Source of the DNA: a virus
Reading direction: 5' to 3' (one strand)
DNA: 64,000 nucleotides
Virus record (IMG/VR): IMGVR_UViG_3300048577_000544
Location: 472-64,471 of that record
Position 1 is the stretch's first letter, and each line of letters opens with the position of its first letter. The notes below the pieces were generated by a model that had not been told where the DNA came from, did no database searches, and saw only the letters and a program-made list of their open reading frames with translations. Made by a program: the position numbers and the translations under genes. This document shows, piece by piece, positions 1-25,819 of this stretch.

Positions 1-855
1 GCGAAAGATGTCACGCCTCGTGATATCCAACAGATACTTTCGGCAACCCACGACCGAGGGCCGTCCATGGCGGCGCACCTACGGGCTTATCTACATGGCG
101 CTTTCTCTTTCGGGATTGGTCGAGAGTTCGACTATACCAGGGCCGCGCTCAGCGTCACTTTTGATTTAACACACAATCCCGTCGCCTCGGTCCCCCGCGA
201 TGCAAGCGCCTTTCAGGTCGGGGACCGCAATCTTTCCCGTGAAGAGGTTGGCCGGGTCTGGCTTGAATTTCCGCAAGGCGTTTCCGAGCGCTTGAGTATC
301 GCCCTACACCTCCTCCTTGCCGTAGGTGGCCAGCGCGTTGAGGAGGTCTTGGCGGCCAAACGAAATGAGTTCAATCCGGTGCGAACGACCTGGGTGCTCC
401 CGCCCGCTCGAACGAAAAATCACCGAGAGCATATCGTACCGCTGACACCCCGAAGCATCGTTCTTTTTCGCCGGGCCGAGGCCCTTGCCGGCGATTCAGA
501 ATACCTTTTCCCAGGGGATAAGGACCAGAACCGCCCAATCCTCGCCACGTCCCTAAATCGGGCCGCCTCGCGTTATTGCAAACGGGTGGGCATGGCTGCT
601 TGGACTCCGAGGGATATTCGGCGCACTTGCCGCACCTTGATGGCCGACACAGGGGAACCGAGCTACCTGCTAAATTTGCATTTTAACCATGGAACTCAAG
701 GTGTTGGCGAAAAACATTATGATCGGTCCACGCACTTGGAAGAAAAACGCACTTTAATGGGGCGATGGGATGCCCTCCTCTCCTCATGCATCGGTGAGGA
801 AACCGGAGGCAAGGTAGTCGATTTCCCCAACAAGCGAATCGTGTCGGGCGAATAA
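1..855 (+). CDS. Tyrosine recombinase/integrase, P4/CP4-like (5' partial)
   Basis: Frame is open from base 1; catalytic motifs GQRVEE (R), RTKNHREH (K), PRDIRRT (R-x-x-R variant of HxxR), HFNH, HYDRS (Y). Confidence 0.9.
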   Translation, partial: AKDVTPRDIQQILSATHDRGPSMAAHLRAYLHGAFSFGIGREFDYTRAALSVTFDLTHNPVASVPRDASAFQVGDRNLSREEVGRVWLEFPQGVSERLSIALHLLLAVGGQRVEEVLAAKRNEFNPVRTTWVLPPARTKNHREHIVPLTPRSIVLFRRAEALAGDSEYLFPGDKDQNRPILATSLNRAASRYCKRVGMAAWTPRDIRRTCRTLMADTGEPSYLLNLHFNHGTQGVGEKHYDRSTHLEEKRTLMGRWDALLSSCIGEETGGKVVDFPNKRIVSGE

Positions 856-897
856 TTTGGAACCCCCATTATTCTCCGGGGGCCTGGAAAGTGAGGG

Positions 898-1062
898 ATG
901 AGGATGGAAGGCTTGAACCAGGTGGCGCTTGCCGAAGCAACGGGCATCCCTCGCCGGCATATCAGCGAAATGGAGAACGGCCGCCGCCCCATCGGAAAGA
1001 AAAGTGCCCGGCTCCTGGCCGAGGCCCTGAATATTGACCCGAGGCGGTTGCTGACGGTGTAG
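898..1062 (+). pseudogene. XRE-family HTH protein, probably 5'-truncated
   Basis: Hand translation MRMEGLNQVALAEATGIPRRHISEMENGRRPIGKKSARLLAEALNIDPRRLLTV is a typical XRE HTH; only 54 aa, and an in-frame stop lies immediately upstream. Confidence 0.65.
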
Positions 1063-1184
1063 TCTGGTAGGATCAACGACATTTCCCCGGCCTAACCCTG
1101 GCCTCATGAACCAGGGCGAAAAGACGCACTCCAACGTCCTGGCCGGGGTGCTATTTGGAGATCAGGCAATGGAGAGCTTGAGAA

Positions 1185-1898
1185 ATGGCAAGCATTCAGT
1201 ATTATTCATTTTGGCTATGGCAATATGAAGTGCGAAGTGAAAAGCCGCTTGAAGAGAAAACTTTTAGAAATCATAATTATGCAGATCCAAATACAGTAAA
1301 TGTATCTGCGAGTGGTACTGAATTTACAAACAAAATTCCTCAAGATTTGATTATACAGGCCATCATAAATAACGAATTTACGCCATGCGGGCCAAGTATT
1401 TCAAGCGAAATATCCGCCCGTTCTTGTCTAAAACTTTCAAAAGGATTGAATGAATCAAACCTGTTTATTGCAATAAAGTACAACGCTCCACTCGAAAAAC
1501 TTATCCCCGAGATGAAAATGCTCATCGCAATGCAACGGCAATGGGCGGTGACTAAAAAGATAGAAATCACAGAGGAAGATCGCATAAAGGCAGGGCTTGA
1601 GGCTACATTAATCTATCAACAGGCCGAGGAAGAATTAAACGCCTATTTTGTTAAAGACAAACCAAATATACACAAAGAAGGAGCGCAAAGAGCATTAGGA
1701 TTATGGTTATTTGATTATTGTCAAAAACGCTCCTGTGGATGCCCGACTGCTTACGCCGCGCTAGAAAAGACGGGCTACCTAGAAAAATTGAACTACGGAA
1801 AAAAAGACAGTAAAAATGAGGAACGCCATTTTGCCAGACTTCTGAAAAACGCTCGCGATTGCATAGCAGCGTGCGAGGTCTTGCCCATAGGAGGATAG
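1185..1898 (+). CDS. Hypothetical protein (AT-rich), possible island regulator
   Basis: 237-aa ORF with GGAGAG RBS, between integrase and AlpA-like gene. Confidence 0.6.
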   Translation: MASIQYYSFWLWQYEVRSEKPLEEKTFRNHNYADPNTVNVSASGTEFTNKIPQDLIIQAIINNEFTPCGPSISSEISARSCLKLSKGLNESNLFIAIKYNAPLEKLIPEMKMLIAMQRQWAVTKKIEITEEDRIKAGLEATLIYQQAEEELNAYFVKDKPNIHKEGAQRALGLWLFDYCQKRSCGCPTAYAALEKTGYLEKLNYGKKDSKNEERHFARLLKNARDCIAACEVLPIGG

Positions 1899-2068
1899 AT
1901 TTCGTTCTCTTTCCTTCTCCGTCAATTATTTGACATGACACTATTGGCTTGGTCAGTAGTGACAGTGACATTTTCATAAAGTTGGCTACTGTCATTACAG
2001 GCACTCCGTTTCCCGCATATCCTATTCCTATGGGTTCTCACTCATGAACTCAAAAAAGGGAGAAAGGT

Positions 2069-2341
2069 ATGCAGCACAACACGCTCCAGACTACTGATTT
2101 TTTCGAGACAGCCCGCCGTGAGTGTCCAACTCATTTCGGCGTCACAGCCATTCCAAAACTCTTTCCTGACATTATCGCCCCTGGGACCGTCCACAACGCA
2201 ATTTCTGCGGGTGTAGGTCCTACCCACCAGAAGCTCAACGGCCGAATCGTCCTTGAGCGCGATTCCTTCCTGGCGTGGCTGCAAGACCGGCCTCGCGTGG
2301 TGAAGCGCGTCGGTGTGGGCAATGGGGGTGGCGATGCGTAA
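2069..2341 (+). CDS. AlpA/excisionase-like winged-HTH protein
   Basis: 90 aa; APGTVHNAISAGVGPTHQKLNGRIVLERDSFLAWL fits the AlpA/Xis pattern; position typical of satellites. Confidence 0.7.
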   Translation: MQHNTLQTTDFFETARRECPTHFGVTAIPKLFPDIIAPGTVHNAISAGVGPTHQKLNGRIVLERDSFLAWLQDRPRVVKRVGVGNGGGDA

Positions 2342-2594
2342 AAAGCAAAAACCCGACCTTATGATGATCGGGCCTTGCGGGGAAGACAGAAAAAATCGTG
2401 GTTGGTTCTTCCTGTCATTTTCGCGCGGCCCCGTCAACAGTTCCACGCTTCTTCTCGCTGCACTGACCTGTCTCCAAGACAAGTTGGCCCGTTTCGCTAT
2501 GCGGCGGCCGTGGTCTCCGTGGCTGTCGCGCATGGTGGACCGTCTCGAGGTTCTGGCCGTGGCCCTGGCCGAAAAGTCGGGGGTGCGGTCGTGA
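2334..2594 (+). CDS. Hypothetical protein
   Basis: Overlaps the upstream stop and the downstream GTG start (coupled operon). Confidence 0.45.
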   Translation: MRKKQKPDLMMIGPCGEDRKNRGWFFLSFSRGPVNSSTLLLAALTCLQDKLARFAMRRPWSPWLSRMVDRLEVLAVALAEKSGVRS

Positions 2595-3181
2595 TTGTCG
2601 AAAATGACATCCGCATCGTGACGCTCCAATCCTGGGAGTTGTCCGTTGTCCGATCCATGACCGCGACATGGGATTATCCTGGCCGGTCGAACATTCGGGG
2701 CCGCGAGGACCGGGCCGGGACGCTCGGGACTGATGCCCTTGTGGGCCAAATAGGAACCTACGCCGGCCTTAAATTCCTGTACGGGGCTTCCTGCCTCGAC
2801 AAGTACCTGACGGGGCGATGGCACGCGAATCGGCGCAAGTTCGAGGGAGACGGCGGGTCCGATGTTGACGCCTTAAACTTGGACTTCAAGGCTTCCCTGC
2901 GTCGCGATCCGAGCAAGCCCCTACTGTCCTACAATCTGGCCGTACGTCCACGGGAACGCCATGACGATTGGACGTACATTCTCGCCATAGTGGGGTCTTT
3001 GGCCGGGGAACAAGCCTTGGTCTACATCCTCGGATGGGCCTCAACGGCGATGATCCCAGACACCCCCGCCGAAGATGGCCCGCTGGCCGGGGCTCACCTT
3101 CTCCATGCCCGCGAACTTCACCCCCTTCCGCCGTTCAAGTGGCGTTATTTTGAGAGGTGCGCGCCATGCCTGCTGAACTGA
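2591..3181 (+). CDS. Hypothetical protein, possible PD-(D/E)xK nuclease-like fold
   Basis: GTG start overlapping the upstream TGA; motif GDGGSDV...LDFKAS resembles D...(D/E)xK. Confidence 0.5.
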   Translation: MIVENDIRIVTLQSWELSVVRSMTATWDYPGRSNIRGREDRAGTLGTDALVGQIGTYAGLKFLYGASCLDKYLTGRWHANRRKFEGDGGSDVDALNLDFKASLRRDPSKPLLSYNLAVRPRERHDDWTYILAIVGSLAGEQALVYILGWASTAMIPDTPAEDGPLAGAHLLHARELHPLPPFKWRYFERCAPCLLN

Positions 3182-5925
3182 TTTCCATGCTGCGGTCGCT
3201 GTATAACGGCCGACAGGATATTGTGCCACGTCGGTGGGAGAATAGGGGGGGGCGTGCTGGATATTCCCCAATATGCAGTGTGAGGCTAACAGCCGATTGT
3301 CTCATCACTAAGTCCCGAAAAACTGGTGGTGTGACGCGCGGCTTATGCAAGCACTGTGACATCAAACAGTATCAGCCCCTGACTGACGACCTGTTGCAAA
3401 GACACCTCGACGGTCGGGAGGTCCTCGGCTGCTACCCGCTGCTGCCCGGCGGCATATGCAATTTCATCGTGGGCGATTTCGATGACCACACTGGCGACCG
3501 CGACCCAAAAAAAGACGTGCTGGCAGTCCAGGCCGTTGCCGAGGTTCAAGACCTCCCGATGAGCGTCTTCACTTCCCGGAGCGGGGCCGGGTTCCACGGT
3601 TGTTTGTTCTTCGCTGCGCCTTTGCCCGCTTGGAAAGCCCGACTCGTGTACTTCGCGTTGCTGGAAGAAGCCCAGGTTTTAGCTGAGGGCGCGGAGCTAG
3701 GCAGCTTCGACCGGCTCATCCCGATGCAAGACCAGCTGCGCGGCGGGGCCGATCTCGGGAACTTGGTGGCCATGCCGTTCCAGGGCGCGGCCGTGCAGCG
3801 GGGGTTCACGCTCCTGTTGGACCCCGAGACCATGGAGCCATTCGCGGATCAGGTGACGGCGCTTAGGGCCATCAAGCGCGTGACCGAAGCTGACCTCGAC
3901 CGGGTTGTTGCCGAATGGGGCCTCAAGCGGCCTGAGGCAGCCAACAAGGACCGGGAAGGCGCGACCTGTGGAGCCCGACCGACCACGAACGCCTCGTCGG
4001 GCAAGCGGAAGTACGCCGAAAAAGTCCTGCAAACCTCCTGCGAGAAAATCCGACAAAGCCGCCCCGGGGACCAACACGACGTGCGCCTGAAAATGGCCCG
4101 GACTGTTGGGGGGTATCTGCACTATATGGATGAGGCGGTAGCCCTTGCTGCACTGCGCGAGGCGGTGGTTGACAGCGGTGCCCAAGACATTGCAGCGGCC
4201 ATGCAAACTGTTCGGGATGGTCTGGAATATGGCCGGGCCGAACCCATCACGATTCCCGACCAGACCAACAGTACCTCCTCAGGCCACACAAGCCCCCTGG
4301 TGGAGCACGCCGGCCGTCTGTGCCGGGTGAAGTACACCGACAAGGGCGAGGCCGAGTACAAGTCCATTACCAGCTTCCTGTTTCGCCCCATCGAAGCCGT
4401 CTCTGTGGAGGGCGAAGGCGAGTATATCAAAACCGCCTTGGTGGCCGGTGCGGTGACTCGGGAAGTCATGCTCCCGCCCGACTGTTGGACCTCGACACAA
4501 AAGTTCCTGCGCGTCTTGCCCGGCCGGGAGTTCATCTTCACGGGAGCCGCCGTTGACGTGCAACTTGTGCGCGGATTCCTGGCCGGCATGACGATGGATC
4601 AGCGCCAGGGCGTGAGAACTGCCGGCTTTCACGGCGAAACCTTCGTCACCAGCGACGGCGGCTTGACCCCGGAAGGCCCGTCCGACAGGCTGGTTTACAT
4701 CAACGAAATTCAGAGCCCCTGCCGTCTGTTGAGCACTGAAGCAGCGACTGCTGACGATCTGGACGCCATCCGGGAGTCAATCACCGGCTTCAACGCTCCC
4801 AAAGTGGCGATGCCCGTCTTGGGCTGGTCGGTCGCCTGCTTCTTTGCGCCGGTCATCCGTGAAATTCTTGACGCCTTTCCTTTGATTTGCATTGAGGGGG
4901 AGGCCGGGGCCGGCAAGTCATCCACGGTGATGGCCGTCGTGGCGGGTCTATGGGCACTCCACGGGGCGGCCCGTGCGCTTGGTGAGCAAACGCGATTCAC
5001 GCTTATGCGGGCGGTGGACGGCAGCAACTCTGTTCCGCTCATCTTCGAGGAGAACAAGGCCTCTCGTATGTCGGAGAAACAGCAGAACCTTGTCTCCAAC
5101 CTCATTCGCGACGGCTACAATGCCTTTGAGGGTCAGCGCGGCATGGCGGATCAATCCATGCGCTCATACCGCTATCAAGCTCCCGTTTGCATCGTCGGGG
5201 AGACCGGCTTCACCGAAACCGCGATTCTCGACCGGATGGTAAACGTGGCAATGACCCGCCGGGCCAGTGCCCCATATCGGACCGGGTTCCAAAAGGTGCA
5301 ACGCCTGCCCCTGGATCGCTTGGGCCGCACTATCCTGGAACATGCGCTTCGGATGGACGCCGAATCCGTGGGGGCGCGTCTGCGGGACTGCTGGCGCGAC
5401 GTTGGCCCCGCCCTTGAAGACCGGCCGCGCAACAATGCCGCCGTCGTCCGCTTTGGGCTGACCATCCTGGGTGATGTGCTCGGCATGGTCTTCGACGCCT
5501 CTCCTGTTGACGCCGCCATTCTGGCTGGCACGTCGGAAGATGGCGGTCCCCGGAAAACGGCAGTGGACCGCATCATCGAGGCCATGGGGCGTATGGCGGC
5601 ATTCGCAGAGCGTAGCCAGGGCCGCGAGTACACTTTCCAGGATCATCTGGAGCCAGACGTTCACTATTATAGCGACGGGCAGACCCTCCGACTGCATGTG
5701 TCCGGGGCCTACCCGGTCTTTGCAAAGTGGGCGCGGGTCCATGGCTTCGACGGCGACGTGATCCCGGAGGCGACCTTTCGCAAACAAATTCAGGGGGAGG
5801 CATATTTCCAGGGGGGCGGGGCCATCTGGATGGGGAGCAAAACCCGGAAAGGCATCGTCTTGGACGTATCGGCGATGGCGGCCAAGGGGCTGGATGTGCC
5901 CGAGGAGTGGGTAAATGCAAGCTAA
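3157..5925 (+). CDS. Primase-helicase (N-terminal AEP/TOTE-like primase, C-terminal P-loop helicase)
   Basis: N-term YSPIC..CKHC..LTDDLLQRHLDG..GCYPLL..C.F.V.DFD and SRSGAGFHG (AEP motifs); Walker A IEGEAGAGKSST; Walker B-like LIFEE. Confidence 0.85.
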   Translation: MRAMPAELISMLRSLYNGRQDIVPRRWENRGGRAGYSPICSVRLTADCLITKSRKTGGVTRGLCKHCDIKQYQPLTDDLLQRHLDGREVLGCYPLLPGGICNFIVGDFDDHTGDRDPKKDVLAVQAVAEVQDLPMSVFTSRSGAGFHGCLFFAAPLPAWKARLVYFALLEEAQVLAEGAELGSFDRLIPMQDQLRGGADLGNLVAMPFQGAAVQRGFTLLLDPETMEPFADQVTALRAIKRVTEADLDRVVAEWGLKRPEAANKDREGATCGARPTTNASSGKRKYAEKVLQTSCEKIRQSRPGDQHDVRLKMARTVGGYLHYMDEAVALAALREAVVDSGAQDIAAAMQTVRDGLEYGRAEPITIPDQTNSTSSGHTSPLVEHAGRLCRVKYTDKGEAEYKSITSFLFRPIEAVSVEGEGEYIKTALVAGAVTREVMLPPDCWTSTQKFLRVLPGREFIFTGAAVDVQLVRGFLAGMTMDQRQGVRTAGFHGETFVTSDGGLTPEGPSDRLVYINEIQSPCRLLSTEAATADDLDAIRESITGFNAPKVAMPVLGWSVACFFAPVIREILDAFPLICIEGEAGAGKSSTVMAVVAGLWALHGAARALGEQTRFTLMRAVDGSNSVPLIFEENKASRMSEKQQNLVSNLIRDGYNAFEGQRGMADQSMRSYRYQAPVCIVGETGFTETAILDRMVNVAMTRRASAPYRTGFQKVQRLPLDRLGRTILEHALRMDAESVGARLRDCWRDVGPALEDRPRNNAAVVRFGLTILGDVLGMVFDASPVDAAILAGTSEDGGPRKTAVDRIIEAMGRMAAFAERSQGREYTFQDHLEPDVHYYSDGQTLRLHVSGAYPVFAKWARVHGFDGDVIPEATFRKQIQGEAYFQGGGAIWMGSKTRKGIVLDVSAMAAKGLDVPEEWVNAS

Positions 5926-5944
5926 CAGTGAGGGGGGCACCCCC

Positions 5945-6180
5945 CTTACCCCGCCTTACCCCAACCTTACCCCTTTCTTACCCCATAACCAATTGAAATA
6001 TATAATTCCTTACCCTTCTTACCCCTACAGAAAAGGGGGTACACATGAGAGCCCTCCCCACTGCATGGGGCTAGTTTTCCCTTTTTATAGCGAGGGGGTG
6101 TCTCCCAAAGGGGTAAGGAAGGTAAGGTATTAATAAATTCAAATGGTTAATGGGTAAGAAAATGGTAAGTTTAGGGTAAG
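5945..6180. repeat. Iteron array / putative replication origin
   Basis: Six CTTACCC copies (5945, 5955, 5966, 5977, 6009, 6018) facing five (G)GGTAAG copies (6111, 6121, 6152, 6164, 6174); 50-bp imperfect inverted repeat 5977-6026 / 6109-6158 (40/50); directly after the primase stop. Confidence 0.8.
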
Positions 6181-6266
6181 GAACTAACCCCTACTGAAAA
6201 AAGGGGGCAGGCGACACTGTCTTATTGCCGTGAGGTCGTGACGTACCATGGCCAGGGAGGGGAATA

Positions 6267-6617
6267 ATGAAAACCGATTTCTACGACACCATGCTCAATT
6301 GCATCATTTCCGCAGGTGCTGGCCAGAAGATCGCCGAGAAGGCTGTTGAAGGACTCCTTACAGTGCTTGGCGGATCGTATATCCCAAAGATCGACCCCGC
6401 CATCCCAGGCCGAAACAAGCGCATTATACATGCGTGGCGGCTGGGCTACTCCTCAAGGGAACTATCTGAAGGGTATGGTGTGAGTCAAAGAACGATCCAA
6501 CGGTTATGCAAAAATGTCCCGAAAGACCTTTCCGCGTGCCTCTTGGGGACAACCCGCGATTACTACAGCCTGTCGCTTTCCGATGGTTTCATCGACACGG
6601 GGGACGGGAAAAAATAA
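6267..6617 (+). CDS. Mor/C-family transcription activator
   Basis: LGGSYIPK...RNKRIIHAWRLGYSSRELSEGYGVSQRTIQRL matches the Mor pattern (GG..yiP, C-terminal HTH). Confidence 0.75.
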   Translation: MKTDFYDTMLNCIISAGAGQKIAEKAVEGLLTVLGGSYIPKIDPAIPGRNKRIIHAWRLGYSSRELSEGYGVSQRTIQRLCKNVPKDLSACLLGTTRDYYSLSLSDGFIDTGDGKK

Positions 6618-6634
6618 CAAAAATATTTTATAGT

Positions 6635-6663
6635 GGCGACATGAAACTATATACCGTGTCGCC
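6635..6663. promoter_or_regulatory. Dyad GGCGACA-N15-TGTCGCC, candidate activator/operator site
   Basis: Perfect 7-bp inverted repeat just after the Mor-like gene and upstream of the next operon. Confidence 0.35.
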
Positions 6664-6718
6664 TAGTAGTGGCAACATTCGTGTAATGGTGGTTCACGAA
6701 ACAGAGAGGAGCATCGAT

Positions 6719-6928
6719 ATGGACGACGAGTTTAAAAACACAGCGGTAGAGTTTTTTAAAACTCCCGGCACTCGCATGACACGGCTCCAATTGGCGCGGC
6801 ATTGCGATGTGGCCGTCAGCACAATCACTGCCTACCTGTTGGGATATTGCCCGATGCCTTCGCATGTCCGTGAGAAGATCGAGGCGCTGATGGAGACGGC
6901 ACGGGGTCGTGTACTGCCCCAAGTGTGA
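6719..6928 (+). CDS. Small HTH DNA-binding protein
   Basis: MTRLQLARHCDVAVSTITAYLLG is HTH-like; AGAGGAG RBS. Confidence 0.6.
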   Translation: MDDEFKNTAVEFFKTPGTRMTRLQLARHCDVAVSTITAYLLGYCPMPSHVREKIEALMETARGRVLPQV

Positions 6929-6969
6929 TTAATCTTCACGTCAGATTAACAAAACGAGGCTGAACACTT

Positions 6970-7254
6970 ATGGCGGTAAACTTATTGGCAGCGGAACAGG
7001 ACGTCAATCAGCTTTTACACGAGGCTGTTGCACAGGACGGCCAGATGTTTCGTGTCTCCTACATTGAACGGCACGGGGAAGGACGGCTTGTCAGCATCGG
7101 TAACGCCGACGCTACCGTCGAGATTCCCTATGACGCGGTGCCGGGTGTGGCGCGAGCGCTTGAGCGGTTCGTGGAGGGCGAGGCTATCCGTGGTTTGGAA
7201 AACGTCGCTTTCACTCGCGGGTTGAAGCGGTCTTATCAAGGGTGGCGGCAGTAG
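6970..7254 (+). CDS. Hypothetical protein
   Basis: 94-aa ORF with GAGG RBS, abutting the TerS start. Confidence 0.55.
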   Translation: MAVNLLAAEQDVNQLLHEAVAQDGQMFRVSYIERHGEGRLVSIGNADATVEIPYDAVPGVARALERFVEGEAIRGLENVAFTRGLKRSYQGWRQ

Positions 7255-7746
7255 ATGGAATTAAAGCAAACTGAGAAATCGAAAGGCGGACGGCCGACCG
7301 GCTACACCGAGGAGATAGGCGACGAAATATGCGCCCGAGTGCTGGCAGGCGAAACAATCAATGAGATTTGCGCGGGCCAGGATATGCCGCCTGTGAGAAC
7401 CCTGTACGGTTGGCTAAAGCAAGTACCAGCGTTCGAGCAGGCGTACGCGCGCGCGCGGGCTGAATCCGGGCAGGCCAGCGAAGGTAAAATACGCGGCTAT
7501 ATGCGGCAGGTGGTGACCGGCGAGCTTGATTCGACAGCCGCGCGTGTTTTGATCGACGCTGAAAAATGGCTTGCGTCAAAACGTGCCCCACGGACCCATG
7601 GTGATCGTGTCGAGGTCGAGCATAGCGGCACTGTCGGCCAAGCCATGCAGGTCACCGTCAACGTCGTGGGTTATGATCCATCGCCGCCCGCCATCGATGT
7701 TGTGCCTACTGCTACTGCGTTGCCTACGGCATCTGTAGAGAATTAA
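7255..7746 (+). CDS. Terminase small subunit (Sf6/P22-like, HTH)
   Basis: GGRPTGYTEEIGDEIC..VLAGETINEIC...DMPPVRTLYGWL...F..AYARAR and C-terminal GDRVEVEHSG are characteristic TerS motifs. Confidence 0.85.
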   Translation: MELKQTEKSKGGRPTGYTEEIGDEICARVLAGETINEICAGQDMPPVRTLYGWLKQVPAFEQAYARARAESGQASEGKIRGYMRQVVTGELDSTAARVLIDAEKWLASKRAPRTHGDRVEVEHSGTVGQAMQVTVNVVGYDPSPPAIDVVPTATALPTASVEN

Positions 7747-7779
7747 AACGTGTAACACACTTGAAAATAAGGGGAAAAC

Positions 7780-8193
7780 ATGGCCGACACACCTTTCATG
7801 GACATTCGTTCCGCCGTCCGAACCATTGAAACCACGTCATTCGATTCTGCCGAGAACCGCGCTGGCAGGGAATTCTTGCGCGGACAGATGGATGACTCGG
7901 CCCGCGACAGCTTCGACGACGCCGTAACGACCCTTCGTGCGTCATTGGCCCCGATGACTCCCGAAGATCGCGAGGCGTGGCGGGGTTTCCACTGCGAGAT
8001 TGCGCCGGGCGATGGCCTCAATTTCGTCGTTAATGCGATCCCGGCCGTCTCGCTGCGAGAAGTTTCTTCGATCTCAGGCCCCGGCGTTGCGCCCCGGTTT
8101 GGCACTCCCACCACGCAGCGCGGCGCTCTTTATCGCTACGTGGAGTCGATTGCGCCCCACACCCCGGACGGCCCGACGTCCAGCACCGCCTAA
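7780..8193 (+). CDS. Hypothetical protein
   Basis: 137-aa ORF with AAGGGG RBS. Confidence 0.55.
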   Translation: MADTPFMDIRSAVRTIETTSFDSAENRAGREFLRGQMDDSARDSFDDAVTTLRASLAPMTPEDREAWRGFHCEIAPGDGLNFVVNAIPAVSLREVSSISGPGVAPRFGTPTTQRGALYRYVESIAPHTPDGPTSSTA

Positions 8194-11513: not shown

Positions 11514-11547
11514 TCCCTGCCGGGTAGATAGAAAGGGAAACTATCGT

Positions 11548-13224: not shown

Positions 13225-13230
13225 TCGACC

Positions 13231-16644: not shown

Positions 16645-17311
16645 TTATGGACCTCAAATAGACCTGACGCACAACTGGGGGCGTCCAGGCGCGGCCCGTC
16701 TTGGTCAAGATGCCATCGGCATTCATCTGGTTGGCAATCCGATGGTAACCATGCCCCTTCGCTCTCAAACTCTCGATGAGACGTAAGCCCCTCTGCTCTG
16801 CCGGGTTCTCCACCAGCTTGCCGGCCAACACATCGAAGCCGAAGGGGATGCCCCCGCCGGTCTTTTCTCCACGGCTCCGCTTGGCTTTCAGTGCATCTTT
16901 TGTGCGCTCCCCGATGGCTTCTCGTTCCCATTGGGCCACGCTCATCAACACGTTTAGCACCAACCTTCCGCCGGCACTGCTCGTGTCTACCTGTTCGGCC
17001 ACCACGAGAAGATGGGCATTCCCACTGAAATGCTGTTCCAGAAGATCGCCCATGTCGCGGACAGAACGCGTCAGTCGGTCTAACTTGGCGATCAGTAGGC
17101 CGGCAGCCTTCCCGGCGCGAAGGGCATCAAGCACGCTTTGCAACCCATGGCGGCGAAGGTTTTTTCCGCTGGCGGCCTCGGTGACGACCTCCACCATCTC
17201 GTGGCCGTACAGATCGCAGTAAGCCCTAAGCTTTGCGGTTTGGGCTTCTAGGCCCAGCCCGCTTGCGCCCTGCTCGTCAGTGGAAACCCTGGCGTAACCG
17301 ATGACTTTCAT
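16631..17311 (-). CDS. Serine recombinase (resolvase domain plus short recombinase domain)
   Basis: GYARVSTDEQ (catalytic Ser), EAASGK, AKLDRLTR, ERTKDALKAKR..GEKTGG; GGAGGG RBS. Confidence 0.93.
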   Translation of the reverse strand: MKVIGYARVSTDEQGASGLGLEAQTAKLRAYCDLYGHEMVEVVTEAASGKNLRRHGLQSVLDALRAGKAAGLLIAKLDRLTRSVRDMGDLLEQHFSGNAHLLVVAEQVDTSSAGGRLVLNVLMSVAQWEREAIGERTKDALKAKRSRGEKTGGGIPFGFDVLAGKLVENPAEQRGLRLIESLRAKGHGYHRIANQMNADGILTKTGRAWTPPVVRQVYLRSISEAA

Positions 17312-17573
17312 GGTGCCGCCCTCCGTTGGCTGAAACGTGGCACAGTGGTCGATAAATGTCAAAAAGTATTTTTATGGTCATTGTCCAGAGCGGAAATCGT
17401 AGCCCTTCGACCGATGACTTACGGTTTTGGCCTATGGCGGTCAAAGTGGCTCAGATGGAGCTTGTCATTGTGCTTCTGGCCAAGGACACCACGGCCTTGC
17501 CCGAGAAGGCCGGCATGAGATACATTCAAGCCGACACCATCAAGATCGAGGAGGACCGGCCTTTGTGCGCCGC

Positions 17574-18153: not shown

Positions 18154-18193
18154 AAAGCGCCCTCTGAGACGATTCGGGGGCGCTTTGTTTTTC
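18154..18193 (+). terminator. Intrinsic terminator
   Basis: AAAGCGCCC...GGGCGCTTT followed by T-run. Confidence 0.7.
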
Positions 18194-18265
18194 TCCTACA
18201 CGCCAACGTCCAAGGAACGATTTGAGATCAAAGCTATTGCCGGCCAGGGCCATGACGAAGACGCC

Positions 18266-18484
18266 CACGGCAAGGATGTCGAGGCGCTACTTCTGGCCGT
18301 CGTCAGGCTTCTAGCCGCTGACCAGCCGCTTCCATCGTTCAACCGCGACCATGCACTGATTGGCGAATGGTGCGACCATAGGGATTGCCACCTCAAGCCA
18401 GACCTTGTGCTTATGTATCGCAAGACACAAGATGGCTTCCTTGACCTAGTGCGACTCGGGTCACATAGCGGACTTGGGATGTAG
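18266..18484 (+). pseudogene. yafQ: YafQ-family mRNA interferase toxin, 5'-truncated, no antitoxin
   Basis: RDHALIGEW.DHRDCHLKPDLVLMYRK...LVRLGSHS is the YafQ signature; the N-terminus is replaced by terminator-derived sequence. Confidence 0.75.
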
Positions 18485-18893: not shown

Positions 18894-19235
18894 ATGAATA
18901 GGTTGGGATTTAAAACTTTTGTTGCCACGTCTGCGATTTTTTTAGGCTTACTTTTGGCCAATCGTGCCATGGCCAGCCAGGCAAGTAGCTACACTGAAAT
19001 GAATCTTGCGGATGGGCAGTGCGAACAAAATGCATATAATATTGCAACTGGCAAGGGCGTTACAAATATTGAAGTAAAAAATCCAATAGTAACATTTACT
19101 ACTGGACCGTACGAATGCGCCGCACGATGTATCTTAAAACATAACATTGTTTTTTTCTATTGCGTTGGCCCTGAATTTGATTACGCACATGGCATCGTTG
19201 AATATATGAAAAAAAATGGACAGTGGTTCCAATAA
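18894..19235 (+). CDS. Exported Cys-containing hypothetical protein
   Basis: Signal-peptide-like N-terminus (..ANRAMA-S); GAGG RBS. Confidence 0.6.
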   Translation: MNRLGFKTFVATSAIFLGLLLANRAMASQASSYTEMNLADGQCEQNAYNIATGKGVTNIEVKNPIVTFTTGPYECAARCILKHNIVFFYCVGPEFDYAHGIVEYMKKNGQWFQ

Positions 19236-19435
19236 ATTGACATTCCTCTTTGAGGTTTATCATACCCCTGGCCGCCATGAACCCATACCCGTGCGGGTAT
19301 CTCGGTGATAAGTTGAGCGACACGGCCATGTGTACGCGCCCCACGACCGTCCGATACGTCGAGCGCCCGACGATCTGACACCCAACAGGCGCGGCACCAG
19401 TTTGCCTGCGCCCCCTGTGCTGACGATGGTCTGCC

Positions 19436-19732
19436 CTACCGACGCACCGTCGCCCTCATCACTCCATCTTTTCCAAACTCAATTTGGCGCACCTCGACAA
19501 CTTGGCCAACCTCAAGGGTTTTACCTTGCCGGCAGTCCGCGCCATCAATGCGGGCTGTAAACCAATAGTCCTCGCCGTCCGGTTGAAAGCCGAAAGTACG
19601 GCAGTCCACAACCTCGGCCACGGTGCCCCGTACCCAGCCCCCCATGTCCTCTTGTGGGCGAAACAGGTAAAAGGCTGCGACGGCGGCCAGGGTGAAGAGA
19701 ACCACGCGACAGAGCAGGCGCGCGCGGATCAA
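19436..19732 (-). CDS. Membrane-anchored small beta protein
   Basis: N-terminal hydrophobic helix; coupled to the PLD gene. Confidence 0.5.
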   Translation of the reverse strand: MIRARLLCRVVLFTLAAVAAFYLFRPQEDMGGWVRGTVAEVVDCRTFGFQPDGEDYWFTARIDGADCRQGKTLEVGQVVEVRQIEFGKDGVMRATVRR

Positions 19733-20247
19733 TATGCCTCCGAATGCTCCCGGTGCTTCTGCCAGTTGTCCAGGTAGAGCTTGGCCAAGCCGACGTCTCG
19801 AATGATGAGGAGGTTTTCGGCGTTGGAGTTTTCCGCCGCCTTGGTGAAGTTGAACGATCCCGTGATTAATGTCTGCCCGTCGATTACCATCACCTTGTTA
19901 TGCGCGATGGCGTGGGCCGCGTCTATGTAGACCGGGATGCCCTCGTTTTTTAGAAAGGTGGCCCCGGTGTAGGTCGCCGTTCGCTGTGATTTGTCCAAGA
20001 CCGCCTCAACCTTTACGCCGCGCTTCGACGCGTCCACCAGGGCCTTGGCTATTGGGGCGCTCGTAAAACTATACGCCTGCACATAAACGCTTTGCTTGGC
20101 CTGCCCTATGGCGTCAACAATGGCATCCTGTGCGCCACCCTTAGGGCTGAAATAAACGCTGACAGGGGTGTCGTGAAGGGTGAGGTCGTAGGCAAAGGCC
20201 GGTGACCACGGCAGGACGAGACAGAGGACAAGGAGAAGGCGCTTCAT
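19729..20247 (-). CDS. Exported phospholipase D-family nuclease (Nuc-like)
   Basis: Signal peptide; single HKD motif AHNKVMVID..TGSFNFT..NAEN. Confidence 0.9.
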   Translation of the reverse strand: MKRLLLVLCLVLPWSPAFAYDLTLHDTPVSVYFSPKGGAQDAIVDAIGQAKQSVYVQAYSFTSAPIAKALVDASKRGVKVEAVLDKSQRTATYTGATFLKNEGIPVYIDAAHAIAHNKVMVIDGQTLITGSFNFTKAAENSNAENLLIIRDVGLAKLYLDNWQKHREHSEAY

Positions 20248-20253
20248 ACTCAC

Positions 20254-20526
20254 CTACTTCAGATTGTGCTTGGTGCGATAGGCTTGAACCATCTGGTCGG
20301 AAACGTCCTTAGGGTAACAGAGAGGAGAACGACCGCCCGGCTTGCTGTAGGCGCTTCGACCGCCACAGCTTCGGCCATTTTTCATGGTGTTGTACGGACA
20401 AGGGCAGTTGCCGGGGTAGGATTGGAGCGACTCCTTGATTATGACGTCACGAATCTCGGCGTCAGTCACGGCAAAAGACAAAACGGGGATAGCGACCAAG
20501 ATGATGGTCAGAAGCAATCTTTTCAT
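20254..20526 (-). CDS. Exported small Cys-rich protein
   Basis: Signal peptide; GNCPCPY...GRSCGGRSAYSKPGG..PLCY. Confidence 0.7.
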   Translation of the reverse strand: MKRLLLTIILVAIPVLSFAVTDAEIRDVIIKESLQSYPGNCPCPYNTMKNGRSCGGRSAYSKPGGRSPLCYPKDVSDQMVQAYRTKHNLK

Positions 20527-20554
20527 GTTTTCGGCCTGGAGAAACTTTTCATAG

Positions 20555-21253
20555 TTATTTTTTAATTATAATGTTGACTTGCTGCTGTTGCTGTTGTTGC
20601 TGCGCCTGCACAGGTACATAAATTCTTGTTGGCGGTGGCGGTGGTGCCTCATATACGACACACCTAATCGCAGGGTCAGCCGCTACAATTTTTCCGTCTG
20701 CATTCTTAAAATAAAAAATGCCCTCGTAGTACCCTTCGTTCTTATTTATAAACTGAACATAACTCTTGTCTCTTTCTATCCACGGCTTATCTGCATCGCC
20801 TAACCACCAAATCCCTTTTCTTTGGTCTTTGGCTTCTTGTTCCGCATGTATAATGTTTTCACAGTCTTTTAGCGTACAATTATTACCCAAAACCATAGCC
20901 ATCCCCTCTTTAACGACGAGGTGGTTCATTGAAACATTATCTTTAAACACAAAGGCTTGAACCCTGCCGAAAACATCGTATCCTTTTTTAGCCGGCACAA
21001 TATGTATATAAGTGTTTGTTCTTTTCATCTCGCTAGAGAGAAATTCCCTTGCAGTGTCAAACCCTAACTGCCCTTCGTCTGGTGCATCTATTCCATAGAG
21101 TCGGACAATGACCGGAGAATCCGTTTTTTCTTCCCTAACTAATAATGTATCGCCAGAGATGGCTTTCTCGAAGACAGCTATAAAAGCGTGAGCTTTTGAC
21201 CCGCTCAATAACACCAGTAATAGTGCTGAAATAAAACAAGATATTGTTCGCAT
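20555..21253 (-). CDS. Exported thermonuclease (SNase) family protein
   Basis: Signal peptide; SGDTL, VRLYGIDAPD, DVFGRVQA, EQEAK..RKGIW. Confidence 0.85.
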   Translation of the reverse strand: MRTISCFISALLLVLLSGSKAHAFIAVFEKAISGDTLLVREEKTDSPVIVRLYGIDAPDEGQLGFDTAREFLSSEMKRTNTYIHIVPAKKGYDVFGRVQAFVFKDNVSMNHLVVKEGMAMVLGNNCTLKDCENIIHAEQEAKDQRKGIWWLGDADKPWIERDKSYVQFINKNEGYYEGIFYFKNADGKIVAADPAIRCVVYEAPPPPPTRIYVPVQAQQQQQQQQVNIIIKK

Positions 21254-21847: not shown

Positions 21848-22618
21848 ATGCCACACGATGATTTACAAGGCCATCTCGCAAATATTTCAAGCAGTTGTGC
21901 CCTTGAATTACTTGAAATTACCGCAAAATGCCTGCATTGCGATTCAGAAAATGATTATAGGCATATATTCACGCTACTTAAAAACCTTATACCATTCGAC
22001 AAATCGACATCAGGCCTTGCAAGCTTAAACAACAACGATATTGTATCATATGAACTTATCAATATTAATTACCCGAATGAATGGTTAAAAATCTATAAAG
22101 AAAACGACTTCAACAAAATTGATGTCATTGTGCAAAATCATTTTACACATTTTACTCCGCAGTATTGGGATTTTACCTACAAGAAGTTCAAGCAATCCCC
22201 AAAAATTGCATCATTGGCGTCTGATTTTGGCATCATACACGGATATACCTTTGGAATGAGGCCGTTCGGTTTTTGCAAAACGGCAAGTCTTTACTCTTTT
22301 TCTGGAAAATTCAACACATATGATTCGAGAGTAATATCCATTTTACAAACAGTAGTCCCTCACATACATTTAGCCTCATCGCGCATAGTTGAAGAGCGCA
22401 GAATTGAATGCAACAAAAAGGTGTTATCAAGACGTGAAAATGAAGTCCTAAAATGGTTAAAGAGAGGGAAAAGTTCATGGGACATCTCTGTAATACTTGA
22501 GATAGGCGAGAGCACTGTCAACTTCCACATTTACAATATCATGAAAAAACTTGATGTTGTAAACCGCCCCCAAGCTATTGCGGTGGCAACTCATCTTGGG
22601 CTACTTGATATTGATTAA
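21848..22618 (+). CDS. luxR: LuxR-family autoinducer-binding transcriptional regulator
   Basis: NYPNEWLKIYKENDFNKIDVIV (W, Y, D of the AHL pocket); C-terminal LSRRENEVLKWLKRGKSSWDISVILEIGESTVNFH. Confidence 0.9.
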   Translation: MPHDDLQGHLANISSSCALELLEITAKCLHCDSENDYRHIFTLLKNLIPFDKSTSGLASLNNNDIVSYELININYPNEWLKIYKENDFNKIDVIVQNHFTHFTPQYWDFTYKKFKQSPKIASLASDFGIIHGYTFGMRPFGFCKTASLYSFSGKFNTYDSRVISILQTVVPHIHLASSRIVEERRIECNKKVLSRRENEVLKWLKRGKSSWDISVILEIGESTVNFHIYNIMKKLDVVNRPQAIAVATHLGLLDID

Positions 22619-23282
22619 ACCAAGCTATCAACTCAGGCTTTTGAAGAAGATTTCTGTCCTCGAAGTCTCTCCAGTCCATTATTGCCGCAGCAGCCACAAT
22701 ACCATCTGACATTCTCGTGGGTTCACCAATCAGTGCACACGGAAATCCAAGCATTTTTAAAAGCCTAAACACTTTATATTCAACCACTAGATATAAATAT
22801 CGAACATTGAACTCAGCACACCATTGATAAACGCGGCGATATAGAAACATTGACACGCCAAGTTGTCCTATATCAGTGCAAAACCTTGTCGAACGTTCAT
22901 CAAAATCCACACATAAACGAGAAACTTCACGTGTGTCACTGTCTTTTCTAAGGACATACCCTGGAGATACCAAGTTAGAAAATTCTTTTTCCAACATAAA
23001 CCGGTAATCAGGCGTGACAAGTCGCAGATACGACAGAATGTTCGTATTTTTAAAAACTCCAAAATGCTCTGCATATTTATCATAAGCATCTTGTTCAAGG
23101 CCATTATCGTTTTGCTGCACCCACCCCAACTCTTCAGCAAACACCTTGTGGCGCAATTCATACGCAAGCGTTATCGTGTCGTCACAAATGACACGTGCGT
23201 CCACTTTGCATACAGATTCCAAACCTTGTTCATATCCACCCCCACTCTTCAGATACTCATTGCTTCTAGACTCTATCAGCAT
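22575..23282 (-). CDS. luxI: LuxI-family acyl-homoserine lactone synthase
   Basis: LRHKVFAEELGW (R, F, W), EQDAYD, YLRL, EVSRL; AAGGAGG RBS; 3' end overlaps luxR by 44 bp. Confidence 0.85.
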   Translation of the reverse strand: MLIESRSNEYLKSGGGYEQGLESVCKVDARVICDDTITLAYELRHKVFAEELGWVQQNDNGLEQDAYDKYAEHFGVFKNTNILSYLRLVTPDYRFMLEKEFSNLVSPGYVLRKDSDTREVSRLCVDFDERSTRFCTDIGQLGVSMFLYRRVYQWCAEFNVRYLYLVVEYKVFRLLKMLGFPCALIGEPTRMSDGIVAAAAIMDWRDFEDRNLLQKPELIAWFNQYQVAQDELPPQ

Positions 23283-23582
23283 GTGTGCCTCCTTTGGTCA
23301 CACAGAGATAAATCAAATTATATAAAAAAAATATCTATGATTTCTTATAGTTGCCTTACCAAATTCTAATATGCTATATTTTTAAGTTTATCCATTAAAG
23401 AACGATGCTCATTCACTTATGGAGTACAAACCATTGATATCCACATCAACAACAGGGGTTGAAATACAAATTCCCACGAATTATACAGAAGTCCAATCAC
23501 AACTAGGTGTACACAGCTGAAACAGACCACTGGCCTCTCCTTAGTCCGCGTCGATACCCCCCCTCCTCCCGTACCTAGGCAT

Positions 23583-23602
23583 ACCTATAACTTCTTCTAG
23601 TT
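23583..23602. promoter_or_regulatory. Candidate lux box (ACCT-N12-AGTT)
   Basis: ACCTATAACTTCTTCTAGTT fits the 20-bp CT-N12-AG consensus, in the spacer between luxI and a divergent small ORF. Confidence 0.35.
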
Positions 23603-23884
23603 GTCCCCAGAATTTTTTTTCTCTATTCGTGCTATAAATTTGTACACAGGAATTTACACCACATTAAACAATATAGCATTTGATACAACACACAGCATTA
23701 TCAGGTTAAGTCTTTGCCTGTCACTTATATAGCGATTATAAATAACCTTGAAATCAGTAAATTTTCAATAAGTTTTGATTTATATAATACGACTCTCATA
23801 AATGAAATACATAAACGCCAATTGTCTAAGCATTTCACTATAAAAGATGGCAAGATGCATGTAAAACATACTTAGGAGTTTGCC

Positions 23885-24091
23885 ATGAACAAAGCAAGGT
23901 GCATTAACCCTTTTGCTTCGAAATTCTTAAAGCCTATTATTTCTCAGAGTCAGAAAATGCTATTACTGAGGTACGAATGCGAAGATGGGAGCATGGGAAG
24001 TATTGGGATAAAAGAAGAAGCAATCGATACTTTGTACAGCGCTATTAACGAGGCGTTAGAAACTGGATGGCAGTCAAAACAATGTAAATAG
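23885..24091 (+). CDS. Small hypothetical protein divergent from luxI
   Basis: 68 aa, AGGAG RBS. Confidence 0.6.
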   Translation: MNKARCINPFASKFLKPIISQSQKMLLLRYECEDGSMGSIGIKEEAIDTLYSAINEALETGWQSKQCK

Positions 24092-24318
24092 CTATATTGT
24101 GTATATTTGGTGTTGATTGCGTTTATCAACGCCATTGCGCTGTCGTGCGCCCACCGGAGAAGGCGGCCCCTTGCCGTATTGAGCTTATTTTTTTCTTGAG
24201 AGGTCGTAAGGGCTAGGCAGGGCTTGGTGTTGAGTGCGAACCTCGGCAGGGAGGGCGACACGAGGCGGGGACATGGGCAAAGTCATAACACCTGCCTTCA
24301 CGGGCTTACACATTCCAT

Positions 24319-24340
24319 ACTGCCCCCATAACTGCCACCA
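24319..24340. repeat. Direct repeat ACTGCCCCCA/ACTGCCACCA, candidate integrase arm sites
   Basis: Two 10-mers 12 bp apart next to the att fragment; resemble the TGGGGGCA/TA-type arms of P4-like islands. Confidence 0.4.
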
Positions 24341-24349
24341 AAACAAAAA

Positions 24350-24389
24350 AAACAAAGAAAAAGGCACCTAGGTTTCAACCTAAGTGCCT
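24350..24389 (-). terminator. Hairpin/terminator downstream of the tRNA fragment
   Basis: AGGCACTTAGG...CCTAGGTGCCT followed by a T-rich run on the - strand. Confidence 0.65.
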
Positions 24390-24397
24390 GAATTTCC

Positions 24398-24442
24398 TGG
24401 AGCCAGCGAAGTGACTCGAACACTCGACCTGCTGATTACGAA
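24398..24442 (-). tRNA. 3' fragment of tRNA-Thr(CGT), att core duplication (not an intact tRNA)
   Basis: Reverse complement TTCGTAATCAGCAGGTCGAGTGTTCGAGTCACTTCGCTGGCTCCA: anticodon loop CGT, T-arm GAGTG-TTCGAGT-CACTT, acceptor strand and CCA; 5' half absent. Confidence 0.85.
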
Positions 24443-24519
24443 GGAAACGGGGGTTGGCTTACTACCTAGCGATCCAATGGGGGTGGGTGCATTCTGGTTA
24501 CAAGCGTCAGCCTGATTCG

Positions 24520-25563
24520 CTATTTCACGCTCCGGATGCTTCCCGTTAAATCCAACGCGCCAAACGACACTCGGGCTGCTTCCTCTTCCAGGTAGCCAGG
24601 CGTCAGGTCCGAATAGTAGCGCTCGGTCGTCGTGTAGTCCGCATGCCCGAGGAGTTCCTTGAGGGCGTAGAGGTTGCCGCCATTGTTTAGATACTCCACG
24701 CCAAATGACACGCGAAGGCCTTGCAGTGACACATCTGGATACCCTGCTGCTTTGAGATAGAACTTGGCCTTGTCCGAAATCGTGTCGACATGAACATGCG
24801 GCAGCAGATAGGCTTCCGGGTCCGTAAACGGGCCGAAGGCCTCGAACGCAGCCACCCCAGCCGTGGTCATGGGATACCAACGCTTGGACTCGTCCGTCTT
24901 CGAGTCTACGATCTGATAACGCTTCGTCTCCATATCCACGTGCTTGACCTTGATCCCGAGCAGTTCCTTGCGTCGTCTGCCCGTGGCGCAATAAAGCGCC
25001 AACACGCGACGCCAGATGATGTCCTCGATGGACATGAGAAACTTCGAGAAGGTGCCGGGTTGTAGATGTGGACGTATCTCGGGTTTGCGCTTCTTGATCT
25101 TGATCGCGGCGAAAGGATTGGTTTTGACGTACTCCCAATCCACGGCCACTTTGAGAGCGGCCTTGCAATGACGCAGATAGGTGTCGATAGATCGTTGCGA
25201 GCATTTGCGTTTCCTGCATGCCGCTACGAGCAGATCGATATGTTTACGCCCAAGACGATCAAGGTGGATCGTTCGCCCCGCCACATTGATGAGCTGGTCC
25301 AGGGCCAGTCTGTTGGCCCGACCGGTCGAATCCGTTTGGCCGCCTTTCTCGGCCCACGCAACAAGCTCATCCCTATAGTCGCCAAGAGACTTATCAGAGC
25401 CCTTGTCCATGAGCACAAGGTGCCCCATGGCCATCTCGCGTTGCAGGATGACAAATCGGCGTTCGGCTTCCTTGGCGTCTTTGGTACGCAGTGATCGCCT
25501 TTTCCCGCGATCGAACTCAACGTACCACGTGCCACCGGCCTCTTCTCGTGGGTATATCCGCAT
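24520..25563 (-). CDS. Prophage tyrosine integrase
   Basis: ATGRRRKEL (R), DSKT (K), QGLR (HxLR variant), LLGH..YTTTERYY (H, Y); ends 78 bp from att. Confidence 0.92.
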   Translation of the reverse strand: MRIYPREEAGGTWYVEFDRGKRRSLRTKDAKEAERRFVILQREMAMGHLVLMDKGSDKSLGDYRDELVAWAEKGGQTDSTGRANRLALDQLINVAGRTIHLDRLGRKHIDLLVAACRKRKCSQRSIDTYLRHCKAALKVAVDWEYVKTNPFAAIKIKKRKPEIRPHLQPGTFSKFLMSIEDIIWRRVLALYCATGRRRKELLGIKVKHVDMETKRYQIVDSKTDESKRWYPMTTAGVAAFEAFGPFTDPEAYLLPHVHVDTISDKAKFYLKAAGYPDVSLQGLRVSFGVEYLNNGGNLYALKELLGHADYTTTERYYSDLTPGYLEEEAARVSFGALDLTGSIRSVK

Positions 25564-25567
25564 GTGC

Positions 25568-25819
25568 TCATGATGTACGCATCCCCTTGAGGATATCAAG
25601 TGCGACGTTGCGGTCGGCGTCCTGCAGGGATGGAGCCTCAAGACTGTCCCTGTCGATACGCCGGTGCCCGCCGGGCGTTGTCCGGACATTGACGAGCCTC
25701 CTGTCAGCCATTTCGCGCATGGTGTTGGGGCAGCAGCCATAGAGATAGGCGGCAAGGGATACGGCTACCCAACGACGGCCATCGTCCCTGATCTCCCGTG
25801 GACTGGTTACGCGTGGCAT
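25568..25819 (-). CDS. Excisionase (MerR-like HTH)
   Basis: AAYLYGCCPNTMREMADRRLVNVRTTPGGHRRIDRDSL; directly upstream of int. Confidence 0.85.
   Translation of the reverse strand: MPRVTSPREIRDDGRRWVAVSLAAYLYGCCPNTMREMADRRLVNVRTTPGGHRRIDRDSLEAPSLQDADRNVALDILKGMRTS

Follow-up and report, generated by a model that had tools for sequence, protein, structure and literature searches.

A 64,000-nucleotide stretch of viral DNA (hereafter the window: bases 472-64471 of the 66,288-bp IMG/VR record IMGVR_UViG_3300048577_000544, which is classed as a provirus) carries, next to the attachment (att) site of a prophage, a complete pair of quorum-sensing genes, luxR and luxI, and a third, divergent open reading frame (ORF) for a protein of 68 amino acids (aa). 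The question raised by this locus is whether the three genes are a density-sensing switch of one of the mobile elements that surround them, or a self-contained unit that has been picked up and is carried along. The second answer is the probable one: the locus would be an autonomous, horizontally acquired three-gene cassette for quorum sensing of the acyl-homoserine lactone (AHL) type, which includes a co-inherited small protein and is carried as cargo. An earlier note on this DNA, made from its letters alone, had drawn attention to the pair, and its claims are taken up below where results bear on them. The cassette and its control elements are as follows.

21848..22618, plus strand: luxR, transcription factor of the AHL-receptor type, 256 aa, Pfam Autoind_bind and GerE
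22575..23282, minus strand: luxI, predicted AHL synthase of the LuxI family, 235 aa, Pfam Autoind_synth
23280..23306, minus strand: luxI leader hairpin, 8 bp, CATGTGYG...CRCACATG, start codon paired and Shine-Dalgarno sequence in the loop
23333..23352, minus strand: proximal lux box, AACTATAAGAAATCATAGAT in the luxI sense, ending 50 nt before the luxI ATG
23583..23602, minus strand: distal lux box (the 20-mer of the earlier note), separated from the luxI ATG by 300 nt and from the small-ORF ATG by 282 nt
23885..24091, plus strand: small ORF, conserved 68-aa gene of the cassette, with AGGAG 7 nt 5' of its ATG

Receptor and synthase

Both luxR (21848-22618, plus strand) and luxI (22575-23282, minus strand) are intact and converge on each other, with a 44-bp overlap of their 3' ends (22575-22618), and the GC content over 22-24 kb is 0.38, compared with about 0.60 for the window. 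The description of an intact, AT-rich, convergent pair with overlapping 3' ends, given in the earlier note, was thus accurate with respect to the placement of the ORFs, their domains, the overlap and the base composition.

The luxR product consists of an N-terminal autoinducer-binding domain (PF03472, 1.8e-18) and a C-terminal helix-turn-helix of the GerE type (PF00196, 4.7e-20). Its nearest solved structure is CviR, which is matched over the full length (E 1e-41), and W79, Y83, D92 and W107 align with the ligand-pocket residues of CviR; a valine occupies the place of the proline that follows the pocket aspartate. The identity to the LuxR proteins of 11 related cassettes is 57-64%. The luxI product matches Autoind_synth (PF00765) with 67.9 bits (1.1e-18; cut-off 24), or 68.3 bits in the genome search, and has TofI, LasI and EsaI as profile matches. 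It retains the family-invariant residues R44, F48, W54, D65, D68, R87 and E119-x-S121-R122, which align to LasI, EsaI and TofI, and homologues of 61-79% identity exist. In the profile alignment the equivalent of EsaI Thr140 is Leu165, in agreement with an earlier alignment by hand that had placed a leucine there. Across 26 aligned members of the clade this position is occupied by Leu, Ala or (once) Met and never by Thr or Ser, and the leucine may be read as a weak hint at a non-3-oxo acyl chain.

A third gene inherited with the pair

Homologues of the small ORF, 39-69% identical, are divergent from luxI in every subclade locus that was checked, and the locus is therefore regarded as a cassette of three genes. 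The homologues occur in Desulfovibrio sp. JY, in loci of the S. magneticus type, in an uncultured Desulfovibrio and on several metagenome contigs; every one of them has a Shine-Dalgarno sequence, and 17 alignment columns are invariant. Three extra members of the family, chosen by sequence alone, showed the same three-gene arrangement each time, and a hidden Markov model (HMM) of the small ORF detected it beside luxI in 14 of 14 subclade loci. With the same model, the more distant Nitrospirota and Geobacter loci gave no hit, and neither did the loci G179 and G211. The family is small, with 22 cluster representatives (E ≤ 0.001) among 1.84 billion proteins. A strong ribosome-binding site and a distance of about 300 bp from att had been noted earlier for the 68-aa ORF; both hold, as the AGGAG motif lies 7 nt before the ATG and the tRNA fragment at the att site is 307 bp away.

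The small protein has no match in Pfam or NCBIfam. In the AlphaFold2 model (AF2; predicted local distance difference test, pLDDT, 81), a long helix comes after four strands. Fold searches (Foldseek against PDB, AFDB clusters and BFVD; VIA-align; the ESM atlas) returned weak structural matches, to COMM domains (Z 6) and to PUR/PC4-type repeats (Z 4). COMM and PUR/PC4 modules form dimers, and paralogues of the small protein with tandem domains would fit such a fold, which offers at most a lead. Two proteins with two copies of the domain in tandem were observed, one on a metagenome contig (L058:4379-4798, 139 aa) and one in Desulfovibrio sp. JY (L005:14099-14470, 123 aa). On the metagenome contig, the tandem gene follows a RaSEA-like radical SAM gene (TIGR01210, 213 bits), has a 44-bp overlap with a convergent LysR gene and is separated by 3 kb from a CI-type S24 repressor. 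The idea that this contig encodes a signal synthase plus receptor was rejected, because RaSEA-like radical SAM proteins are nucleic-acid modification enzymes.

The cassette in related genomes

A search of species-representative genomes with a profile built from LuxI homologues yielded 34 loci, which belong to Desulfovibrionaceae, Nitrospirota, Geobacteraceae, Smithella, Desulfobulbia and others. In 31 of them luxR is present and convergent, and the remaining three contigs end before the place of luxR; the convergent overlap of luxI and luxR is thus a trait of the clade and not special to the window. LuxI is rare within the Desulfovibrionaceae: it was found in only 7 of the 301 species genomes searched, in line with the earlier expectation that a synthase plus receptor on a satellite would be unusual in a sulfate reducer, the probable host of the locus. 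In each of the 15 loci that were measured, the cassette has a lower GC content than its flanks, as expected of a transferred unit, with the lowest values in the window (0.38) and in the JY prophage (0.395).

Among the relatives, the cassette mostly resides in ordinary chromosome (G179, G211, G002 and the S. magneticus-type loci), where its neighbours are genes for histidine kinases, a universal stress protein, deoxyhypusine synthase, BamA and the like. In Desulfovibrio sp. JY (CP082962.1, about 686-746.5 kb; loci L005 and L079-L081) it is part of the immunity region of a prophage of about 60 kb. This prophage has the small and large terminase subunits (TerS and TerL), portal, RecT and a serine integrase. 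An S24-type repressor, a phospholipase D-like protein (PLD) and luxR are encoded co-directionally in this order, luxI converges on luxR, and the small ORF heads an early array running leftward to RecT and the integrase.

No close relatives of the window were found in the IMG/VR phage collections when LuxI alone was used for the search, and an exact look-up of the window LuxI, made with a view to the host flanks, matched no record. A 181-nt contig from a 2024 wastewater metagenome run, present at low depth, corresponds to window positions 22637-22817 within luxI with a single difference, which hints at the habitat of the source organism. In three wastewater metagenomes, searched as contigs, the luxI piece and pieces of the tRNA were found and no junctions bearing on excision; scanning metagenomes with the 41 nt at the start of the left integrase gave no match.

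Two lux boxes and a hairpin in the luxI leader

A motif-free comparison of the intergenic regions between luxI and the small ORF singled out the 20-mer at 23583-23602 as the best-conserved element. In the luxI sense it reads AACTAGAAGAAGTTATAGGT and is identical at 18 of 20 positions to the box of the JY locus, AACTAGAAGAATTTACAGGT, which is situated 49 nt upstream of luxI. In the window this position is taken by the proximal box, which shares it (49-50 nt) with a CAACTAG-N8-AYAGRT box of eight related loci, giving nine aligned loci in total. Canonical CCTGT-N8-ACAGG boxes are found upstream of luxI in most loci of the wider clade. The lux-box-like 20-mer of the earlier note is therefore a real motif, but the conserved position is that of a second box, 23333-23352, which had been overlooked.

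The degenerate pattern AMCTRK-N8-MYAGKT has a single perfect match in the 64 kb, the distal box at 23583-23602. When up to one mismatch was allowed, 8 hits were obtained in the window versus 2.5 expected, and the one-mismatch hits include the proximal box, the palindrome of the tRNA terminator, 2466-2485 and 29954-29973. A matrix made from the boxes, and hence biased to them, found only the two intergenic sites. Because no other perfect match exists and the six other one-mismatch hits are near chance, direct control by LuxR beyond the cassette, that is, of phage or satellite genes, looks unlikely. The site at 2466-2485 (ACCTGTCTCCAAGACAAGTT) lies inside the 5' part of an ORF (2375-3181) in the early region of the satellite described below.

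A second box nearer to the small ORF is also present in JY and in locus L057; the S. magneticus-type loci do not have one. An origin of the two boxes by duplication was considered and rejected, as their likeness is limited to 23 nt and its score falls within the range of shuffled sequences. It is the conservation across loci that makes the two boxes credible, their mutual likeness not being significant alone. A scan for promoter consensus sequences gave no more hits than expected by chance.

The hairpin at the start of luxI is kept in the nine aligned loci, with 94% of the cells paired and two compensatory pairs, and its score was reached by 4 of 500 shuffles. It may be a translational brake or a stabilising 5' stem.

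The following mechanism is inferred from these elements. LuxI would make an acyl-homoserine lactone, and the CviR-like LuxR would bind this signal and act at the box 50 nt upstream of luxI, resulting in autoinduction. LuxR would probably also act at the second box, which faces the divergent 68-aa gene. The small protein, which is co-inherited across the Solidesulfovibrio-type subclade, would most likely be the dedicated regulator or the output of the cassette. Lastly, the hairpin that pairs the luxI start codon would probably hold basal translation of LuxI low.

The cassette lies between a satellite core and a displaced tRNA end

The position of the cassette with respect to its neighbours is defined by the following features, one of which, a nuclease gene, is shared with the JY prophage. 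PICI stands for phage-inducible chromosomal island.

1..8193, plus strand: PICI-like satellite core with integrase, int-alpA RNA, AEP primase and TerS
19729..20253, minus strand: secreted PLD/NucT-like nuclease, Pfam PLDc_2, NucT-like in NCBIfam
24362..24389, minus strand: native intrinsic terminator of tRNA-Thr, with a T run after its 12-bp stem
24399..24443, minus strand: 3' 45 nt of tRNA-Thr(CGU), left att site of the prophage, unique in the record
24520..25755, minus strand: tyrosine integrase of the prophage, Pfam Phage_integrase

The tRNA-Thr fragment matches the 3' part of intact tRNA-Thr(cgt) genes with 80-100% identity. ARAGORN found no whole tRNA in the window, and no repeat of the fragment was found in the record. 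In the genomes of other Desulfovibrionaceae, the terminator and the tRNA 3' end are jointly conserved. Since both the fragment and the terminator match intact tRNA-Thr loci, they are the native, displaced end of a host gene, and since this native end has kept its own terminator, the DNA to its left, including the cassette, is outside the prophage. The cassette therefore adjoins the prophage att site, as had been proposed earlier, without being part of the prophage, which is of the siphovirus type and extends from 24.4 kb to beyond 64 kb. It encodes the integrase, CII-like and CI-like regulators, a sliding clamp, a diversity-generating retroelement (DGR), tail proteins, a tape measure protein, an endolysin, a head protease, portal and terminase.

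To the left, the satellite core contains an int-alpA RNA (Rfam; 1085-1161), a primase (AEP-TOTE, 1.7e-53) and TerS (phrog_1482, 1.5e-33, at 7255-7746), and in this core of integrase, alpA motif, primase and TerS it resembles the PICI-type satellites. Neither TerL nor portal or capsid genes were found in 1-24 kb; the combination that defines a PICI-like element (integrase, alpA, primase and a packaging gene, without capsid or TerL) is confined to 1-8.2 kb. The cassette is located 14 kb beyond the satellite TerS, and the tyrosine integrases of satellite and prophage are unrelated (19% identical). As the record begins exactly at the ATG of the 441-aa integrase, the attL site of the satellite falls outside the record. 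A comparison intended to fix the satellite boundary was uninformative, because the two genomes whose primase is 80-82% identical have nothing in common with the window apart from that gene. The placement of the cassette on a satellite-like island is thus correct insofar as a PICI-like core lies to the left, but nothing places the cassette inside that satellite. It is cargo in accessory DNA between the PICI-like core and the native 3' end of tRNA-Thr.

Alternative explanations

Several observations weigh against an autonomous AHL cassette. The C-terminus of LuxI is 12 aa shorter than in its relatives. The proximal box is degenerate, with CTAT/ATAG and not CTGT/ACAG. The intergenic region measures 602 bp, compared with 250-363 bp in six relatives and 224 bp in L057, and regulation at the window locus may therefore differ from that in the relatives. 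The TraI-type AHL-synthase models of NCBIfam score 54-63 bits on LuxI, with cut-offs of 250-292, and the model TIGR03694, for an acyltransferase associated with PEP-CTERM/exosortase, scores 68 bits against a cut-off of 112; it should be noted that the AHL-synthase models of NCBIfam describe narrower subfamilies. Finally, the tandem paralogues of the small protein are found in phage-like immunity regions without luxI, so that a phage-directed role of this protein fits better than a purely internal one.

The alternative that retains most weight is that the locus is a density-sensing switch of a mobile element, in which LuxR and its AHL would induce the 68-aa protein, which in turn would act as an antirepressor or excision activator on the prophage (with its CI-like gene at 30850-31590) or on the satellite. 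The JY cassette lies inside a prophage behind an S24 repressor with the small ORF at the head of an early array, the tandem paralogues in JY and L058 are near CI-type repressors, and the mobile, AT-rich versions of the cassette (window, JY and L057) have the second box on the side of the small ORF. There are also precedents in the modules of a transcription factor and a small ORF (TF-smORF; PMC10432266) and in the luxI/luxR pairs of Phaeobacter prophages (bioRxiv 10.64898/2026.07.02.736140). However, the cassette of the window is outside the prophage att site and its small ORF is antisense to the integrase; the cassettes of most relatives are chromosomal, with no phage nearby; the additional box matches, for example those at 2466-2485 and 29954-29973, are near the number expected by chance; and the CI-like protein of the window resembles its counterparts in JY and L058 only in the HTH, at 33-37% identity. 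A switch of this kind is considered unlikely. The same holds for a cassette that times excision or phage induction; the one relative that supports the idea of timing, and makes it more concrete, is Desulfovibrio sp. JY with its prophage. The broader proposal that the cassette is a phage-derived decision module of Desulfovibrionaceae mobile elements, which senses density and whose 68-aa protein would inactivate a CI-type repressor or trigger excision, is likewise doubtful.

It is far less probable that the enzyme is an N-acyl amino acid synthase or another LuxI-like acyltransferase, and that the regulator senses something other than an AHL. This alternative would account for the scores below cut-off of TIGR03694 and the TraI-type models, for the EpsA model being the top NCBIfam match of the C-terminal part of LuxR, and for the JGI annotation of some clade members as N-acyl amino acid synthases. 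Yet the Pfam score for Autoind_synth (67.9 bits) is far above that for FeeM (22.8 bits), every residue that is invariant in the LuxI family is present, the partner protein, whose nearest match is CviR, contains a complete autoinducer-binding domain that includes the Trp/Tyr/Asp/Trp pocket, and canonical lux boxes are found across the clade.

That the window copy is decaying, inert cargo of an earlier element downstream of tRNA-Thr, as the shortened LuxI, the degenerate proximal box, the expanded intergenic region and the neighbouring remnants (a truncated 243-aa serine recombinase and toxin-antitoxin pieces) might suggest, is the least credible of the alternatives and can be given very little weight, given that three open ORFs with all conserved residues, the hairpin, the Shine-Dalgarno sequences and the spacing of the box have been preserved and that a nearly identical luxI fragment (1 difference in 181 nt) exists in a wastewater metagenome.

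Comparison with known systems

A convergent layout of synthase and receptor genes is known for CviI/CviR and ExpI/ExpR (also for the ExpI/ExpR-EsaI/EsaR type). The cassette described here shares with CviI/CviR of Chromobacterium the convergent genes with overlapping 3' ends, and CviR is the solved structure closest to its receptor. It differs from that pair in its lineage, which is that of the Desulfovibrionaceae within a clade shared with Nitrospirota and Geobacteraceae, in the third, small gene, and in its LuxI, which has a long N-terminal extension and a leucine at the position of EsaI Thr140. Small regulators of the RsaL/RsaM type are encoded divergently beside luxI homologues, and the likeness to the small protein is one of position only: a small gene, divergent from the synthase gene, is inherited with the pair. 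No likeness in sequence or fold to RsaL or RsaM was found, the predicted four strands and helix of the small protein differing from a helix-turn-helix.

Complete luxI/luxR pairs have been described on prophages of Phaeobacter inhibens (Bunsick et al., bioRxiv 2026, 10.64898/2026.07.02.736140). These modules consist of xre-luxR-luxI and a counter-oriented hth gene and were found only in the Roseobacter clade, in a survey that was limited to Alphaproteobacteria (10.64898/2026.07.02.736140). In both cases a complete synthase and receptor are present on mobile elements and are exchanged as cassettes, and the JY luxR, co-directional behind a phage repressor, resembles the xre-luxR-luxI lysogeny operon. 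In the window, in contrast, luxI converges on luxR, the cassette lies outside the prophage and has neither xre nor hth beside it, and the third gene encodes an orphan protein that is predicted to be rich in beta structure.

The XRE-LuxR/smORF modules of Aeromonas phages have no synthase and need an XRE partner; their smORF is divergent from the transcription-factor gene, and the product inactivates cI (Silpe et al., Nature 2023, PMC10432266). Such TF-smORF modules of Vibrio and Aeromonas phages resemble the cassette in that a LuxR-type receptor gene lies beside a counter-oriented small gene without known domains, and, for the window, in a candidate LuxR site upstream of the small gene. Unlike in those modules, the small ORF of the cassette is counter-oriented to luxI and not to luxR, and the contexts are mostly non-phage: JY is the only relative with the small ORF on a phage. 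With the TraR/TraI system of ICEMlSymR7A, the idea of an AHL circuit on an integrative element that acts via small downstream ORFs is shared; unlike there, no lux box is found on excision or transfer genes of the window.

AHLs have been detected around sulfate reducers, and the genome mining of a 2016 review found no synthases in them (PMC5187520). The clade described here gives concrete, though rare, LuxI/LuxR candidates for these organisms. LuxI/LuxR pairs as such have long been known, and complete prophage-borne pairs have been known since 2026; new are the three-gene form with its orphan small protein, the conserved leader hairpin, and the presence of the cassette in or beside mobile elements of Desulfovibrionaceae. 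The role of the small protein would be of interest in either case, as it would represent a new kind of quorum-sensing accessory regulator or would extend the small-protein switches of phages to anaerobes. The JY prophage offers a natural system for the study of complete phage-borne AHL circuits outside the Roseobacter clade. If the cassette were a decision module after all, the JY prophage would be the first phage outside Alphaproteobacteria with a complete AHL synthase and receptor, and this in an anaerobic sulfate reducer, and the window copy would let the island or satellite listen in on, or provoke, the neighbouring prophage.

Other features of the window

Following the satellite TerS, a module at 8239-13503 encodes proteins of 613, 275, 644 and 90 aa. 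Five IMG/VR phage contigs of 29-56 kb encode homologues of the three large ones (41-50% identity), and the late region of the JY prophage encodes homologues of all four; a transglutaminase-like core is present in the 644-aa protein. Further to the right are the truncated, CcrB-like serine recombinase of 243 aa (16631-17362), which comprises the resolvase domain and the beginning of the recombinase domain, and a gene for a YafQ-like toxin (18185-18484). Both point to remnants of older mobile elements in the stretch that separates the satellite core from the cassette. The genes in 18894-21253 form a series that, judged from N-terminal signal-like sequences, encodes small exported proteins. The nuclease at 19729-20253 is 75% identical to the PLD that is encoded directly beside luxR in the JY prophage, and 20555-21253 encodes a homologue of staphylococcal nuclease.

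In the prophage, the DGR spans 33974-36817. Its reverse transcriptase (33974-35023, minus strand) matches phrog_1423 (2e-114), and the template repeat of 117 nt (35163-35279) shares 89% identity with the variable repeat (35346-35462) within the 3' end of the gene for a tail protein (35330-36817, minus strand). This tail protein, the target of the DGR, is 48% identical to an mtd-type protein of the prophage of Desulfovibrio sp. JY.

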